DNA from: Gammaproteobacteria bacterium | GTDB taxonomy: Bacteria > Pseudomonadota > Gammaproteobacteria > GCA-001735895 | DNA length: 64,000 bases | Reading direction: 5' to 3' | NCBI GenBank assembly: GCA_050298595.1 | Contig: JBNKUM010000085.1 | Span: 64,001-128,000, forward strand | Shown: positions 1-6,028 of the stretch, one piece after another | Numbering within the stretch: the first letter of the stretch is position 1 | Layout: every line of letters begins with the position of its first letter | Notes under the pieces: generated by a model | Databases searched by the model: none | The model's input: the letters and a program-made list of their open reading frames with translations, nothing else | Told to the model about the DNA's origin: nothing | Translations under genes and position numbers: made by a program

Positions 1-1
1 T

Positions 2-346
2 TATGTCACTCGCAAGGGTGCCATCAGCGCAGGTCTGGATGAGCTCGGTATTATCCCTGGCAGCATGGGTGCCAAATCCTACATTGTGCGCGGCAAAGGT
101 AATCCGCAATCATTCTGTTCCTGTGCGCATGGAGCAGGTAGAAAAATGAGCCGCAGTGCGGCCAAACGTCAGTTCAGCGAACAGGATGTAGAGAAACAGA
201 CTGCAGGGATTGAGTGCCGTAAGGATAAGGGTGTGATAGATGAAATTCCATCCGCTTATAAGGATATTGATCAGGTGATGCAGAATCAATCTGATCTTAT
301 TGAAGTAGTACATACCCTGAAACAGGTAATCTGCGTTAAGGGTTAG
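2..346 (+). CDS. rtcB: RNA ligase RtcB, C-terminal part (5' end outside window)
   Basis: Open frame from base 2: YVTRKGAISA..GIIPGSMGAKSYIVRGKGN..SCAHGAGRKMSR..DEIPSAYKDID..KQVICVKG, the RtcB C-terminal motifs. Confidence 0.93.
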   Translation, partial: YVTRKGAISAGLDELGIIPGSMGAKSYIVRGKGNPQSFCSCAHGAGRKMSRSAAKRQFSEQDVEKQTAGIECRKDKGVIDEIPSAYKDIDQVMQNQSDLIEVVHTLKQVICVKG

Positions 347-508
347 GGAACCTCTGATTAATTCTGGTTCGATGGTGTGGTGAGATGAAATAGTTCGGAT
401 CAAGGCGAAAAGTGCACGTAATAGCAAGCTATTGCGAAACTTTTCAACGCTGAGCCGGATTATTTCAGCCACGACACACCGATCCACGAATTGATCAGAG
501 GTTACTTA
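344..508. mobile_element. ~165-bp MITE-like palindromic element
   Basis: Terminal inverted repeats TAGGGAACCTCTGATTAATTC / GAATTGATCAGAGGTTACTTA; whole element folds as an imperfect hairpin with central AATAGCAAGCTATT. Confidence 0.75.
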
Positions 509-601
509 GTTAATTACAACTGGAGAAAAGCATGTTCAATAAACAGCCAAATGAAAAGAGATATCGATTAATGAAGCACCGATTTATCAAGAGAAAAGAT
601 T

Positions 602-1540
602 ATGAAGAAAGAGATTTTAGATGAGGTAATTGCCTGCTTACCAGAAGAGCGAACCTTGTTTCACTACTTTAAAGGGCAATATGCCTATCAACTGCTGTCT
701 TATGCCAGTAGAAAACAATCCAGTGTAAAAGCAATGAAGCAATCCGTTTATCAAAGGCTACTGAACCAGCAGGACATAAAGCTGTTATTAGCACAGTTGG
801 GTAATGGAACACTTAATCCTGAATTATTTCAACATGTGTGGAATGATAACAGCCAGCCATTTGTACTGACTGTAGATCGCTGGGGTAACAACAACCAGTG
901 GAATTGCCAGACTACTCGTAAAGGCTGCAATCTGGTACTGCAATTGAATTTTTCAGAAATGCATAACCGTACTTATCAGCGCCTGGTTAAACCAGAAGAT
1001 GATTATATTTTTAACTATTCAGGTCATCCCGTGATGGATCGTAATAAGAGTGAGCGCTATCGAGATACGCTAGCCTGGTCACGTATAGACCTTGATCTGG
1101 ATAGCGGTGAAGCATTGATAGAAGAAATTCAAAGCGACTGGGTTCGGCGTGTAAAGCGCTGTTTACAGGCAATAAAAAAGGGTTCTACTCCCTGGTTTCT
1201 GGACTGGTGCAAATGCAGTAGCGATGATTTTATTATGTATGCTGAAAATGTGCTGGCTCCTTTTTATACCCTATGGGCTGAAGCTATGCTGTCATCCAGT
1301 ATCCATTTTATATTCAGAGAGCTGGGTATAGATAAAATTTATTATCACACCCACGAAACCGGACAAAAGATAAAGCAGGTCTATGGAGGTGCCCCACCAC
1401 GCTCTCTGTATTCCGATTTACCCAGAAAATTCTGTTTTCAAATTACTGATGAAGAGCCTGAGTTTATGAAAAATGACCGGAGCTTCAAACGTAAAAAGCG
1501 CAGCCTTAAACAGCTTGCATGGTACAAACTGGAACTTTAG
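602..1540 (+). CDS. Hypothetical protein, 312 aa (EEIQSDW motif; possibly GNAT-like C-terminal fold)
   Basis: Long ORF co-oriented with rtcB; no family recognised with certainty. Confidence 0.75.
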   Translation: MKKEILDEVIACLPEERTLFHYFKGQYAYQLLSYASRKQSSVKAMKQSVYQRLLNQQDIKLLLAQLGNGTLNPELFQHVWNDNSQPFVLTVDRWGNNNQWNCQTTRKGCNLVLQLNFSEMHNRTYQRLVKPEDDYIFNYSGHPVMDRNKSERYRDTLAWSRIDLDLDSGEALIEEIQSDWVRRVKRCLQAIKKGSTPWFLDWCKCSSDDFIMYAENVLAPFYTLWAEAMLSSSIHFIFRELGIDKIYYHTHETGQKIKQVYGGAPPRSLYSDLPRKFCFQITDEEPEFMKNDRSFKRKKRSLKQLAWYKLEL

Positions 1541-1549
1541 GAGAAAAAT

Positions 1550-1768
1550 ATGCCAAGACGAAATCGAGCTATTAGAAACCCTGTTGCTCGCTCCCCACTA
1601 CTCAGAAAAGGTGGAGTTCATAGCCAGACAACAACTGGACAACGGGTTCGCAACCGACTTCAAACTCAATCAGCTATCAATGAATGGCTGGAGGAGATTG
1701 AAGACGAAGCAATAACTCAAACTAAGGTTAAGGGGAGCAATAGCTCCCCTTATTGCTTTCAGCTGTAA
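1550..1768 (+). CDS. Small basic protein, 72 aa (NPVARSPLLRKGGVH motif)
   Basis: RBS AGGAGA just upstream; Arg-rich N-terminus. Confidence 0.7.
   Translation: MPRRNRAIRNPVARSPLLRKGGVHSQTTTGQRVRNRLQTQSAINEWLEEIEDEAITQTKVKGSNSSPYCFQL
1729..1759 (+). terminator. Terminator-like hairpin inside the 3' end of the 72-aa ORF
   Basis: TAAGGGGAGC-AATA-GCTCCCCTTA perfect 10-bp stem followed by TTGCTTT. Confidence 0.55.
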
Positions 1769-1789
1769 AAAGGAGGAACCTAAGCGTAA

Positions 1790-2353
1790 ATGAAGATTCT
1801 AAAGATCATGAACCTACTTAAACTCATATTAATATCAGCAATGATAACAACCACAGTATCGTCCTGCAGCTCAAATATTCCTCTGGATATTTCTCAGGAA
1901 GTACAGGGAGCCCCCAGTTTTACACAGATTCAGAAACAACCTGAGGCCTACCAGGACCAACCACTACGCTGGGGTGGCACGATCCTGAAAACTGACAATA
2001 AACAAGGCTCCAGCTGGATAACCATTGTCGCCTTTCCATTAAACAATAATGGACGACCTATGGAGTCAGATCAGAGCCCAGGACGCTTTATCGCTGTCAT
2101 CGATGAATTTCTCGAGCCCTTAGTCTTCACTCGAGATCGTGAAATTACCGTTCGCGGTAGACTGATCAAAACTGAAACTATCAAGGTTGGCGATTTTCCA
2201 TATCAATACCCTTTACTACAGGTAGACAGTTATCACCTGTGGGCTCCGAAGCCCGAAATAAACGAAATGAATTCGCCCCATTTCTGGCCATATTCCTGGC
2301 CTTATTATCCCTACTACCCCGACCCTTACTTTAATCGTCGACTCTATTACTAA
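1790..2353 (+). CDS. Slp-family outer-membrane lipoprotein
   Basis: Lipobox-like VSSC; RWGGTI..PL..GRP..GRF..FLEP..ITVRG..GDFPYQYP; Pro/Tyr-rich tail. Confidence 0.85.
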   Translation: MKILKIMNLLKLILISAMITTTVSSCSSNIPLDISQEVQGAPSFTQIQKQPEAYQDQPLRWGGTILKTDNKQGSSWITIVAFPLNNNGRPMESDQSPGRFIAVIDEFLEPLVFTRDREITVRGRLIKTETIKVGDFPYQYPLLQVDSYHLWAPKPEINEMNSPHFWPYSWPYYPYYPDPYFNRRLYY

Positions 2354-2853
2354 TGAACGAAATGAAAAAACCGATACGCAAAAGTATTTTTCTTCTGCCC
2401 CTGATCAGCCTGCTTGCGGGCTGTGCCAGTACACCTACATTTGATGTCACTCAGGTAGACAATACACTTATACCGCAGAATGTTGCCGCCGAACCCTCTG
2501 CCTATCTGGGTAAAACGGTTCTATGGGGCGGCATTATCCTGGACACCAGGAATTTATCCGGTTCTACACAGATAGAATTACTAGCCTATCCGCTAAGCAA
2601 GGATCAGAGGCCCCTGTCGGACAATAGACCATTAGGGCGCTTCCTGATTAATAAAGATGGGTTTCTGGACCCTGCGATTTATTCCCAGGGCCAGAAAGTC
2701 ACCGTACTCGGCAGCGTCGATAAAAACCAACAGGGAAAGGTTGGCGAAAGTAATTACAGCTATCCAGTCATTAATGCCGAGCAACTCCAGCTCTGGTCAC
2801 CACAGAGCGAAAGCCAAACTCGATTTAGTTTTGGGCTCGGGGTTGTCTTTTAA
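2353..2853 (+). CDS. Slp-family outer-membrane lipoprotein (second paralog)
   Basis: Lipobox LAGC; VLWGGII..YPL..RP..GRF..GFLDPAIY..VTVLG..GESNYSYPV. Confidence 0.85.
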   Translation: MNEMKKPIRKSIFLLPLISLLAGCASTPTFDVTQVDNTLIPQNVAAEPSAYLGKTVLWGGIILDTRNLSGSTQIELLAYPLSKDQRPLSDNRPLGRFLINKDGFLDPAIYSQGQKVTVLGSVDKNQQGKVGESNYSYPVINAEQLQLWSPQSESQTRFSFGLGVVF

Positions 2854-3151
2854 GGCAGCTCTGAAACCAGCCTCTGGTTGAAAAATTTAACCGGCAAAAT
2901 AGTGAAGTGAAAATCCCCGCCTAACCTATGTAGTTACACCGCCATTTGCGGATTGCCATTTTTTACAATCTGTAATTTTTTTGAATAATATTTTAATGTG
3001 CCATAGTAAAAAAGACCCGGCAAGGTTCACTGTTTTTTTACTTACAGTTCCGGCCAGGTCCTTTAGAGAGGAACCCCTCTCTTCACTTATTATATAGCTC
3101 AGATTTTTTTAATCTGCAAACTTAATTCACAATTATTGTAAAAGTAATAAT

Positions 3152-4576
3152 TTAGTCTGCAGTATTACTTTCATCGCTTAGCAACCAAGTCAAAATCATC
3201 TCCTTTATTTTAAGGTACTCGTCATCATCAGGGGTAACATTTTGCCATTGAGGATTCTGCCGCAGGGTCTTTAAAACATCACTCCATTTTTTTGGAAGCG
3301 TACGACCAGTTTCATTGAAAAGCTTTAGCCTGCTTTGCGCCGCATGTCCTCGATGTGTCAGGGTTGTTAATAACCTGCGCTGTCTGAGATAAAGCAGACT
3401 GACTGTTTCATCATCAACACATAGCCATTGGTGACCACGCCAGGCTGCCATCAATTCCTTTTGATATCGTTGAACTGACGCCCATCCTCCACCTATTGCT
3501 GCACCTAGCAGGCTCGCTGCCCCCAGGCTTAAGCCTCCTACCATTAAATCAATGCCTGCACCGACAGCAGCACCGGATAGTGCAGAGGCTCCTACATCCA
3601 GTCCAAATTCTTTTAACATATGCGGTGAAAATATATCCAGCTCCCAACGACCATTGCTCACTGGCAACTGCTGCAGATCGAGGTCCAGTTGAGTAAAAGC
3701 AAAGATTGCCAATAGATCCTTCAAAGCCCTTTGTTCGGCATTACGCACGAAATCCTGCATTGAATTCACGTCGCTATCAGAAATACTTTTACTGGTTTTC
3801 GTTTTATCAGATTTACTACCAGTGACCTCAAGCCGATAACAGGCTACTTCGCAGAGAAGTTGAAAGATACGACGTGCGGCAGCCTGCTTCAGGTTTTGCC
3901 ATACCTGTTGGCGGTAGTCGATTAAATGCTGCAGGGAATCGTAGTAACGCTCCAGCAGGCTTTGCAGTTTTTGGTACAGCCGTTTTTCAGCCTCAAAATC
4001 AAAAGCAACCGTATCAAACTCAAGTGCCGCATGCAGATTAAACAAAGCCATCTGTTCACGCCAGCGCTTCAGCGCTTCATCATTTCCTTCGATAAAATTA
4101 AACACCGGAAGAATCGGTTTACCTGCCTTACTGAGGACTTCTACTTCATCGCGATACTTACCCAGCAACGGTTCGCGTACATCAATAATATATAGCAACA
4201 CATCACTACTTAGTGACTGTCGCAGCACCTTGATCTCCTGATCAAAATCAGCATAACGGTCTTGCCGAGAGATGAAAGCCTTCAGGAGTTCAGCGGGTGA
4301 AGCAGTTTCTATTGATGCTGATAACGCTTCCACTTCCTCCAGTAGTGCGCTGGAATCTTCAAAGCCCGGTGTATCGAACAGGCTTAATACAATCTCATCA
4401 TCTGCATAAATAGACGACTGTTCTACAGAGCGCGTGGTACCCGCAGCATCATCGACATTGCCGAAATGATCGTCGCGTAACAAGGTTCGGATCAATGATG
4501 TTTTACCGGCATTGGTATGACCGACAATGCCAACTTTGATTGCTACTGAAGGATTAGCCTGCATGGAATTGGTCAT
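3152..4576 (-). CDS. GTPase / DUF3482-domain protein
   Basis: G1 GHTNAGKT, G2 GTTR, G3 DTPG, variant G4 FNF; Gly-rich hydrophobic hairpin GAAVGAGIDLMVGGLSLG; LTHRGHAA. Confidence 0.85.
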   Translation of the reverse strand: MTNSMQANPSVAIKVGIVGHTNAGKTSLIRTLLRDDHFGNVDDAAGTTRSVEQSSIYADDEIVLSLFDTPGFEDSSALLEEVEALSASIETASPAELLKAFISRQDRYADFDQEIKVLRQSLSSDVLLYIIDVREPLLGKYRDEVEVLSKAGKPILPVFNFIEGNDEALKRWREQMALFNLHAALEFDTVAFDFEAEKRLYQKLQSLLERYYDSLQHLIDYRQQVWQNLKQAAARRIFQLLCEVACYRLEVTGSKSDKTKTSKSISDSDVNSMQDFVRNAEQRALKDLLAIFAFTQLDLDLQQLPVSNGRWELDIFSPHMLKEFGLDVGASALSGAAVGAGIDLMVGGLSLGAASLLGAAIGGGWASVQRYQKELMAAWRGHQWLCVDDETVSLLYLRQRRLLTTLTHRGHAAQSRLKLFNETGRTLPKKWSDVLKTLRQNPQWQNVTPDDDEYLKIKEMILTWLLSDESNTAD

Positions 4577-5988
4577 TTTGAATCTACGGTCATGCTGATG
4601 ACATGATCAGCCGGAATATCGCAGGCTTCTGCCAGGCGATACCAGGCGGCTAGCCGTTTAGTAGAAGCTTTTTCTTCATTGGGTAACTGTAGAAGCACCA
4701 GCCAGCGCTGCAAGCAATTATTCATCAGGCTAGCAATGGTTCGTTGTACACCACGATCTGGTGAACGCTCAGCATCTGCAGCCACCGCAAGATCTGTAGT
4801 CCCAGCAACCTGTAAAAGCCGCAAGGTTGTTGCCAGTGACTCACGATCAATGACCTGCCCAACACTATCTTCTAACTTGATAGATGATATTGGCCAAATG
4901 AAATTATCGCCGAGCTCCACTGCGACCCATTTTGTATTTGCTGGAAGTGAATGGGATACTGGTGCATGAGGGTTTGTCTGTATAGACTCAGGAGGCGAAG
5001 TATCTGCATCAACGATTTGACCGTGAGTTGCCATCGGCATCAATCTCTGACGCAGGCTAATGTAATAAGGCAGGTATAAATCAAGTGCAAACAGGCGACG
5101 CGCTCGCATACTCATCAACGAACTCCAGAGTAGTAACACAAAACGCGGTACGATTCCGAAGCACAGCAAAGATCCCAGTAAAAACTGCGCCCAACTGGAA
5201 CGGTGTTCAGCACTCAACACATGCTCTACGCCTAATCGAGACTCCCTTACCTGATCCACGGTTGGCATCACAAAACCAATAAATTCCAGTGGCCGACTCA
5301 ACATATCCGTTAGTTTGATGAAAATAGAGTCAGATAACAAAGTCGTACCCCAGACAAAATCATACTGCCTGACCATTAATAGCAATACCAGAAACGTCAG
5401 CCCGGACAACAGGTAAACCAGCCACAACTGATGCGTTATCTTGCTAAACTGCCACTTACCAACCGCAGCGGTAAACAAACACTTCAACCAGGCCTTGTCA
5501 GCCAACTTACCAGGCGTCGCAGTGTCTTGTTTACCCGTATTAGTTTTGTTGTCGAACATACCAGGTAACCAGCCAGTTAAACGAGCTAACAGGCCGGAGG
5601 CCAGGCCCTCCATATTCAGGCTAATGCCAATCAACCAGAGCAACATTGAGATAAAATTAAAACCCAGCAACACCAATAACAACCAGTAGATGTTGATGGT
5701 ATTACTATTAGTGATTGCGTATACGGAACCCAGAGCACCCAATAATGCAACCAGAATTAGAGTAAAGATTTTTATATATCGAGATATTTTAGCGGCATGT
5801 GAAAGCGCATCTGACAAATCATACTGCCTGACCAGGCATTGCGCGCGCCGCCAGAGACGTTCGTGGAAATCCTGATGTGCCGATATGTCGGCAAGTTCCT
5901 CCTCATGATCAGAGACAAGCGGGTGCGAGGTTTCAATATATCGTATCTGTTCGATCAGCAAAGACTTGTCGAAATTAGAAATTGTCAC
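4573..5988 (-). CDS. DUF2868-domain membrane protein
   Basis: TM helices; RQYDFVWGTTLL, W..FLLGSLLCFGIVPR and PDRG motifs; overlaps the GTPase start. Confidence 0.8.
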   Translation of the reverse strand: MTISNFDKSLLIEQIRYIETSHPLVSDHEEELADISAHQDFHERLWRRAQCLVRQYDLSDALSHAAKISRYIKIFTLILVALLGALGSVYAITNSNTINIYWLLLVLLGFNFISMLLWLIGISLNMEGLASGLLARLTGWLPGMFDNKTNTGKQDTATPGKLADKAWLKCLFTAAVGKWQFSKITHQLWLVYLLSGLTFLVLLLMVRQYDFVWGTTLLSDSIFIKLTDMLSRPLEFIGFVMPTVDQVRESRLGVEHVLSAEHRSSWAQFLLGSLLCFGIVPRFVLLLWSSLMSMRARRLFALDLYLPYYISLRQRLMPMATHGQIVDADTSPPESIQTNPHAPVSHSLPANTKWVAVELGDNFIWPISSIKLEDSVGQVIDRESLATTLRLLQVAGTTDLAVAADAERSPDRGVQRTIASLMNNCLQRWLVLLQLPNEEKASTKRLAAWYRLAEACDIPADHVISMTVDSK

Positions 5989-6028
5989 AATAGAATAAAG
6001 AACCCGAAAATATTGAATCCGGTTATTT

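Follow-up and report, generated by a model that had tools for sequence, protein, structure and literature searches.

The 72-aa basic open reading frame at positions 1550–1768 of the DNA analyzed here, a stretch of 64,000 nucleotides referred to as the window, encloses a terminator-like hairpin upstream of its own stop codon and lies close to a gene for the RNA ligase RtcB. This arrangement raises the question of whether the encoded protein is made from an mRNA that has no stop codon and, if so, what such a protein would do beside an RNA ligase. Gating through a non-stop mRNA is known from only two genes, the backup rescue genes arfA and brfA. As described below, the anatomy of arfA and brfA is met again in a large family of small proteins, as yet unnamed and often wired to RtcB, in which the hairpins evolved independently. 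If the gating works, it would mark a new factor that is deployed only upon failure of trans-translation, would link rescue to RNA repair in organisms that have no PrfH, and would make a terminator within the frame of a small conserved ORF a simple signature for finding more such factors. We tentatively prefer, with slightly less than even confidence, a reading in which the small protein acts within RtcB repair modules by binding the ribosome or RNA, and in which its synthesis from non-stop mRNA places it under the control of tmRNA.

The ORF proves to be a genuine gene encoding a small protein, laid out in the window as follows.

1539..1543, forward strand: Shine-Dalgarno sequence AGGAG of the small gene, 6 nt 5′ of the ATG at 1550 and overlapping the TAG stop of the upstream 312-aa ORF (read from sequence).
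1550..1768, forward strand: gene for the small basic protein, 72 codons with the stop included (ORF list; 16 close homologs; 1013 clusters in a representative library at E ≤ 1e-3).
1574..1621, forward strand: codons 9–24, the nearly invariant motif RNPVARSPLLRKGGxH (alignments A1 and A2).
1631..1720, forward strand: codons 28–57, predicted to form one long helix that is first basic and then acidic and includes the conserved Trp46 (AF2, 61-row alignment).
1729..1752, forward strand: terminator hairpin inside the ORF, 10-bp stem with loop AATA, flagged as terminator-like and conserved in 12 aligned loci.
1753..1763, forward strand: T-rich tail upstream of the stop at 1766–1768, the presumed region of the transcript 3′ end (sequence; predicted end point).

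The frame opens with ATG and closes with the TAA at 1766–1768. The earlier note on this DNA had described a basic ORF of 72 aa with an Arg/Lys-rich N terminus and a hairpin at 1729–1752 before the TAA, and each of these elements is present as it was quoted. Residues V12, A13, L18, K20, G22, and H24 are invariant across 61 aligned family sequences, and the RKGG motif is found in the alignment of the family. In the AF2 model, computed with the 61-row alignment, helix 28–57 has pLDDT values above 90, and residues 1–27 are extended with pLDDT values of 66–74. As modeled, the small protein is composed of a basic N-terminal motif, which is probably unfolded, and a long helix.

A word-indexed search retrieved 16 homologs of 56–95 aa, in which the first ~50 residues align well and the tails differ in both length and sequence. 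All three features that had been proposed as a check on homologs were found: conservation of the N-terminal ~50 aa, tails that vary, and hairpins within the ORF. In a scan of one genome per species, 86 relatives of the small gene were located in Gammaproteobacteria and Betaproteobacteria. The gammaproteobacterial carriers belong to Arenicella, Chromatiaceae (including the cultured Thiorhodococcus, Thiocystis, and Imhoffiella), Sedimenticola, Methylococcaceae, Thiodiazotropha, and Rariloculaceae, and the betaproteobacterial carriers to Casimicrobiaceae and Nitrosomonas. Within the genus of the window, 5 of the 13 other genomes carry the small gene. A profile of 61 family members matches 1013 clusters (50% identity) of the representative library at E ≤ 1e-3 and 271 at E ≤ 1e-10; among the 150 clusters listed of the 1013, the proteins range from 44 to 165 aa and the core is N-terminal. 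A further 218 matches to the family come from metagenomes. ORF 1550–1768 has no match in Pfam or NCBIfam at E ≤ 1, a PDB sequence search with the family profile gave no significant match, and PADLOC assigned no defence family to the small protein, the 312-aa protein, or RtcB. Homologs are absent from the plasmid and phage collections searched (tblastn, E ≤ 1e-3). A description of the family was not found in literature searches, the coverage of which stopped short of the main RtcB-neighborhood census (NAR 2016). By these searches, the family is large, widespread, and without a name.

A search for longer members as possible fused forms mostly gave gene-call run-ons into an amidase, ChaC, or a solute-binding protein. 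One metagenome cluster with a single member, P0296 (312 aa), has the family core joined to an RlaP (PF10127) nucleotidyltransferase domain, which may be a real fusion or the result of a lost stop codon. The name of the RlaP family reflects its linkage to RNA ligases (PMC12776372).

The hairpin of the window has a perfect 10-bp stem and a 4-nt loop and ends 13 nt 5′ of the stop codon. Because its T-rich tail is interrupted (7 T among the 11 bases of 1753–1763), the terminator of the window is weaker than a textbook one, and the 111-nt region that contains the hairpin does not fold unusually as a whole (z −1.5). The stem sequence occurs once in the 5.49-Mb assembly, and the hairpin is therefore not a repeat element. 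The sole match of an Rfam search of positions 1–6000 was to CrcZ, falls on the hairpin, and was judged to be due to chance (E 0.83). An alternative pairing of 1707–1715 with 1750–1758 had also been put forward. The two segments are indeed a true 9-nt complement, but beyond the window the pairing is preserved only in its nearest relative, L015; L014, L016, and L017 do not have it, and it is therefore specific to this lineage.

Terminators in the other loci were scored by a strict rule that calls for a stem of at least 6 bp with at least three GC pairs, ΔG ≤ −7, and a T-rich tail. Of 82 unique genome loci, 13 pass this rule with a terminator-like hairpin in frame, as do 18 of the 74 evaluable loci of an independent metagenome set, in which contig ends truncated four further loci. 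In none of the 82 genome loci does a terminator-like site span the stop codon or fall within the next 120 nt, and none of the 74 metagenome loci has one across or after the stop. Among the 13, L029 received its score from a weaker site, and its actual hairpin was recognized on reading the DNA; L017 and L086, outside the 13, possess the hairpin but do not pass the T-tail rule. When the DNA of all loci was read, a GC-rich hairpin followed by a T-tract was seen 51–78 codons from the start of the core in the genus of the window and in about eleven further lineages.

At least seven unrelated stem sequences serve as the in-frame hairpin, in two reading frames. The commonest stem, GGGGAGC/GCTCCCC, yields G-S-x-x-S-P or G-E-x-x-L-P, depending on the lineage; since the same stem is read in two frames, it is the RNA element that is conserved and not the peptide. 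Taken together, the two peptide signatures occur in 18 of the 150 cluster representatives under a strict pattern. In an alignment of the hairpin from 12 loci, 96.3% of the cells are paired, three pairs have changed on both sides, and five of the nine pairs never vary. The covariation score of these 12 loci is 0.177 versus a shuffle mean of 0.054, and none of 500 shuffles reached it. As a background, 92.3 kb of other coding sequence from the same loci contain 16 terminator-like sites (0.17 per kb), of which two are strong (ΔG ≤ −13), one of these being the family's own hairpin in an overlapping frame. The tails of the small genes, each ~0.1–0.3 kb, bear strong hairpins in one lineage after another.

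The position of the stop codon shows no comparable constancy. Across the hairpin loci it falls 1 to 256 nt past the hairpin, and in the genus of the window 1, 10, 13, and 32 nt past the stem. The mean distance from hairpin to stop is ~64 nt for 15 genome loci and ~42 nt for 18 metagenome loci (hand sums). Judged from the sequences, these distances are close to the expectation for unconstrained sequence and the position of the stop is free. Homologs that stop before the hairpin, the pattern named in the earlier note as speaking against its own proposal, were not found among the loci that have the hairpin. A gene design like that of arfA and brfA is thus strongly supported by the anatomy of these loci. 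A strict-rule terminator is missing from 69 of the 82 genome loci and from 56 of the 74 metagenome loci, and most family members, chiefly those of high-GC lineages, have 47–70 aa, an ordinary stop codon, and no terminator. Because most members have none, non-stop gating is not a property of the whole family. The proposal of arfA-like non-stop regulation therefore holds as a gene design in the hairpin lineages but does not extend to the majority of the family, the members of which stop normally.

The region downstream of the hairpin bears on a different reading of the same anatomy.

1790..2853, forward strand: two tandem genes for Slp lipoproteins, 1790–2353 and 2353–2853 (Pfam PF03843), with a ribosome-binding site at 1771–1776.

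The first Slp gene begins 22 nt past the stop of the small gene, and no promoter-like site was found on the forward strand of positions 1–2900. The Slp genes would then be reached only by read-through of the hairpin or from a promoter that escaped the search, and in the genus of the window probably by read-through. Together with the interrupted T-tail, the Slp genes without a promoter-like site make read-through transcripts that include the stop codon likely in this genus. The hairpin could accordingly be a leaky terminator or attenuator of the operon, across which the unconstrained 3′ end of the small gene has drifted. Enough read-through or ribosome-coupled transcripts would keep the stop, tmRNA gating would have no real role, and the product would be an ordinary constitutive protein. 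Closely coupled translation can suppress intragenic terminators. The weak T-tail in the window and its genus, the Slp genes that directly follow, and the normal ends of most family members are all in line with such a leaky element, which we nevertheless regard as rather unlikely given the wider set of loci. Terminators lie in frame in 31 loci versus none after the stop, the stems are of independent origin and are read in two frames, and drift alone does not explain why a stop never occurs in the 10–25 codons between the core and the hairpin. Loci outside the genus of the window, moreover, have canonical T-tracts, at which the unit often comes to an end opposite a convergent gene (as in L027 and L033).

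In our preferred reading, in which the small protein is a tmRNA-gated factor, an intrinsic terminator lies in frame ~60 codons from the start in the clade of the window and in several others. We infer that transcription terminates there in vivo; since the terminator precedes the stop codon, the terminated transcripts would carry no stop codon. Ribosomes that reach the 3′ end of such an mRNA would be freed by tmRNA-SmpB, and degradation of the tagged product would follow. Saturation or damage of trans-translation, as might occur in mass stalling or under attack by ribotoxins, would be needed for the untagged product of ~69 aa to build up. By analogy with arfA and brfA, gating of the small protein by tmRNA is likely in the lineages that have the hairpin. 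Once it has built up, the protein would use its basic motif to bind the ribosome or rRNA and would assist, together with RtcB, in rescue or repair.

The proposed cooperation with RtcB draws on the gene neighborhood, the upstream part of which comprises two genes in the window.

2..346, forward strand: 3′ end of rtcB, encoding the C-terminal 114 aa (Pfam PF01139, E 2.3e-47 for the fragment); the full 398-aa gene lies at L102:11150-12346 (E 7.7e-133).
602..1540, forward strand: gene for a conserved 312-aa protein, family unknown, fold predicted to be GNAT-like (nothing above cut-off in Pfam or NCBIfam; AF2 model).

The score of the window RtcB lies below the NCBIfam cut-offs of both the E. coli-type and the PrfH-linked RtcB. 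Among 85 unique genome loci, 33 have an RtcB (63–97% identical to that of the window) within 4 kb of the small gene, one of them a remnant. In the metagenome set, RtcB lies upstream of the small gene in 29 of 80 loci, 19 of these with a full-length RtcB, and linkage to RtcB extends to 13 of the 18 loci that have the terminator in frame. The usual gene order is rtcB, an optional 312-aa gene, and the small gene; in Chromatiaceae, the small gene precedes rtcB. Unlinked copies have housekeeping neighborhoods, such as hemW-amidase-small gene-chaC in Casimicrobiaceae and an adjoining divergent PP-loop gene in Rariloculaceae. Of 22 unlinked carrier genomes, for which completeness values were not given, 15 have no RtcB, and the core function of the small protein therefore cannot depend on RtcB. 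The link to an RNA ligase on which the earlier note had built is real at 33 of the 85 genome loci, but the family is not tied to RtcB. Because the linkage is frequent yet dispensable, the small protein is best regarded as having an independent function, which RtcB repair modules have often recruited.

The 312-aa gene, which in many lineages separates rtcB from the small gene, was found in 23 of 89 genome loci and in 22 of 80 metagenome loci. Its product has 1631 homologs, all unnamed. The AF2 model of the protein (pLDDT 90.9) gave GNAT acyltransferases as all of the top 50 VIA-align matches (residues ~84–312), with Z scores of 9.3–7.4 that are barely above the noise level of the tool, and its Foldseek matches are weak (best E 0.067). 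Instead of binding the ribosome, the small protein could be a partner or substrate of these neighboring enzymes, serving RtcB as an adaptor or acting as a target or regulator of the putative GNAT-fold protein. Such a role would fit the tight packing of the genes, with the ribosome-binding site overlapping the upstream stop, the linkage to RtcB in both gene orders, and the retention of Trp46 of the helix mainly in RtcB-linked lineages (judged by eye). It appears quite improbable, as 15 of the 22 unlinked carrier genomes have no RtcB and the most conserved part of the protein is a basic motif that resembles an RNA-binding segment.

Several other elements were observed in this neighborhood. Positions 350–505, between rtcB and the 312-aa gene, form a near-perfect long hairpin of 156 nt within a 261-nt region of −85 kcal/mol (z −7.3). 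A Y-RNA-like or regulatory RNA was considered here and rejected; the element is a MITE-like repeat with six near-full copies in the genome at 84–100% identity, and at this site it is shared by the window and its nearest relative alone, three congeners being without it. Positions 532–624 hold an ORF of 30 codons with its own GGAG that overlaps the start of the 312-aa gene in another frame, possibly a coupled upstream ORF, and similar short ORFs lie in the same spacer of congeners. On the same contig, ~4 kb upstream of the start of the window, L102:6811-8271 encodes a 486-aa protein with a DUF6602 match and a match to a PD-DExK/NucC-like nuclease (PADLOC, E 9e-22). This nuclease-like gene is upstream of DUF6502 and DUF5666-like genes, which precede rtcB.

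The rescue inventory of the carrier genomes sets the frame for what the small protein might add. The genome of the window contains tmRNA (209 bits), and its RF-1 domains are only those of RF1, RF2, and ArfB. A canonical ArfA was not found in this genome by a six-frame search, which did not pick up ORF 1550–1768 either, and PrfH was not found in this genome. SmpB (PF01668) was not found in the assembly of the window, which is 98.6% complete, even at E ≤ 10. Because 10 of 13 congeners have SmpB, including three other carriers of the small gene, it is probably missing through an assembly gap. Mutual exclusion with ArfA was also considered and set aside: ArfA occurs in none of 50 carriers, but also in only 3 of 300 genomes across the class and in 3 of 61 in a second sample, and its absence from carriers is without weight because it is rare across the class.

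Similar to ArfA, the family combines a small protein, a hairpin inside the ORF, a dispensable variable tail, and a basic Gly-rich motif. To our knowledge, ArfA is not linked to RtcB. In contrast to ArfA, the family has no KGKGS motif and the basic part has the opposite polarity. The similarity to ArfA, described previously as weak, proved to be undetectable: the ArfA profile PF03889 matches neither the ORF at E ≤ 1 nor any of 61 family members at E ≤ 10, and hhalign of the family against three ArfA sequences gave a probability of 0.2%. Mature ArfA has 52–55 aa (ArfT preprint). The gene brfA is described (PMC6881298) as having 71 codons, a rho-independent terminator within the ORF, and a product that is held down by trans-translation. 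The likeness to BrfA is one of gene anatomy, comprising ~71–72 codons and a rho-independent terminator within the coding region a few codons before the stop. The small protein has no match at E ≤ 1 in Pfam or NCBIfam, libraries that may or may not include a model for BrfA. Unlike BrfA, which is from Bacillus subtilis, the family is proteobacterial, has its basic motif at the N terminus, includes many members without a terminator, and is RtcB-linked in many cases.

Pfam holds a KGG family, and KGG-type Pfam models matched none of the 61 members at E ≤ 10, a search in which the HMMER filters drop weak matches. What the family has in common with ArfT is limited to very small size and a motif of the Lys-Gly-Gly type (in ArfT, KKGGSTNKK). 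Unlike ArfA, ArfT is not made from non-stop mRNA in the manner of ArfA (ArfT preprint). The ArfT family is said to be broad and stress-linked in PMC6514570, which also describes PrfH-RtcB2 as a pairing of a rescue factor with RtcB. Similar to PrfH-RtcB2, the loci examined here pair rtcB with a gene for a putative ribosome-directed factor and have a sporadic phyletic pattern. They differ in the ligase, as the window RtcB scores 153.8 bits versus a cut-off of 271.8 for the PrfH-linked type, and in the partner, as the small protein has no match to the RF-1/GGQ domain PF00472 and hhalign against the genome's own ArfB gave a probability of 0.15%. The idea that GGxH is a degenerate GGQ motif is unsupported by this comparison with ArfB.

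These comparisons bear on whether the small protein is a true alternative rescue factor, which would sense an empty or damaged decoding site and recruit RF1 or RF2 for peptide release as an analogue of ArfA, BrfA, and ArfT and, with RtcB, of PrfH-RtcB2. The restriction of non-stop gating, so far as it is known, to the backup rescue factors encoded by arfA and brfA speaks for this role, as do the small basic protein, a Lys/Arg-Gly-Gly motif that recalls KGKGS of ArfA and KKGGSTNKK of ArfT, the precedent of PrfH-RtcB2 (PMC6514570), and the failure to find a canonical ArfA in the genome of the window. Homology to ArfA or to the RF-1 domain is undetectable, however, and the genome already has ArfB. 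In addition, the basic part is N-terminal, whereas ArfA, BrfA, ArfB, and SmpB use C-terminal tails. We therefore consider release-factor recruitment in the manner of these proteins to be unlikely.

The broader binding role of the preferred reading can be examined through its most conserved segment. No significant homology to any ribosome-binding factor was detected in the PDB profile search, in Pfam searches with 61 members, or in the hhalign comparisons with ArfA and ArfB. A speculative extension, to which we assign a low probability, is that the family arose independently as a set of trans-translation-gated ribosome factors that are unrelated in sequence to ArfA, BrfA, and ArfT. Such factors would recognize ribosomes whose RNA is damaged or stalled and pass them on to a release factor, to RtcB, or to both. 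The family would thereby form a minimal counterpart of PrfH-RtcB2, free of the RF domain, in at least 1000 gamma- and betaproteobacterial clusters, and its motif may mimic an rRNA-binding segment of uL4. The invariant core segment RSPLLRKGGV (1589–1618 of the window) is identical at 8 of 10 positions to RSPLWRSGGV in the genome's own uL4 (L108:1495-2100, reverse strand). In single comparisons chosen post hoc, the uL4 segment gave E 0.005 by BLASTP and E 0.0013 with a probability of 18.6% by hhalign, and in a PDB-wide search the uL4 match had E 1.3. The resemblance in sequence may thus be a lead for mimicry of rRNA binding, as distinct from homology to uL4.
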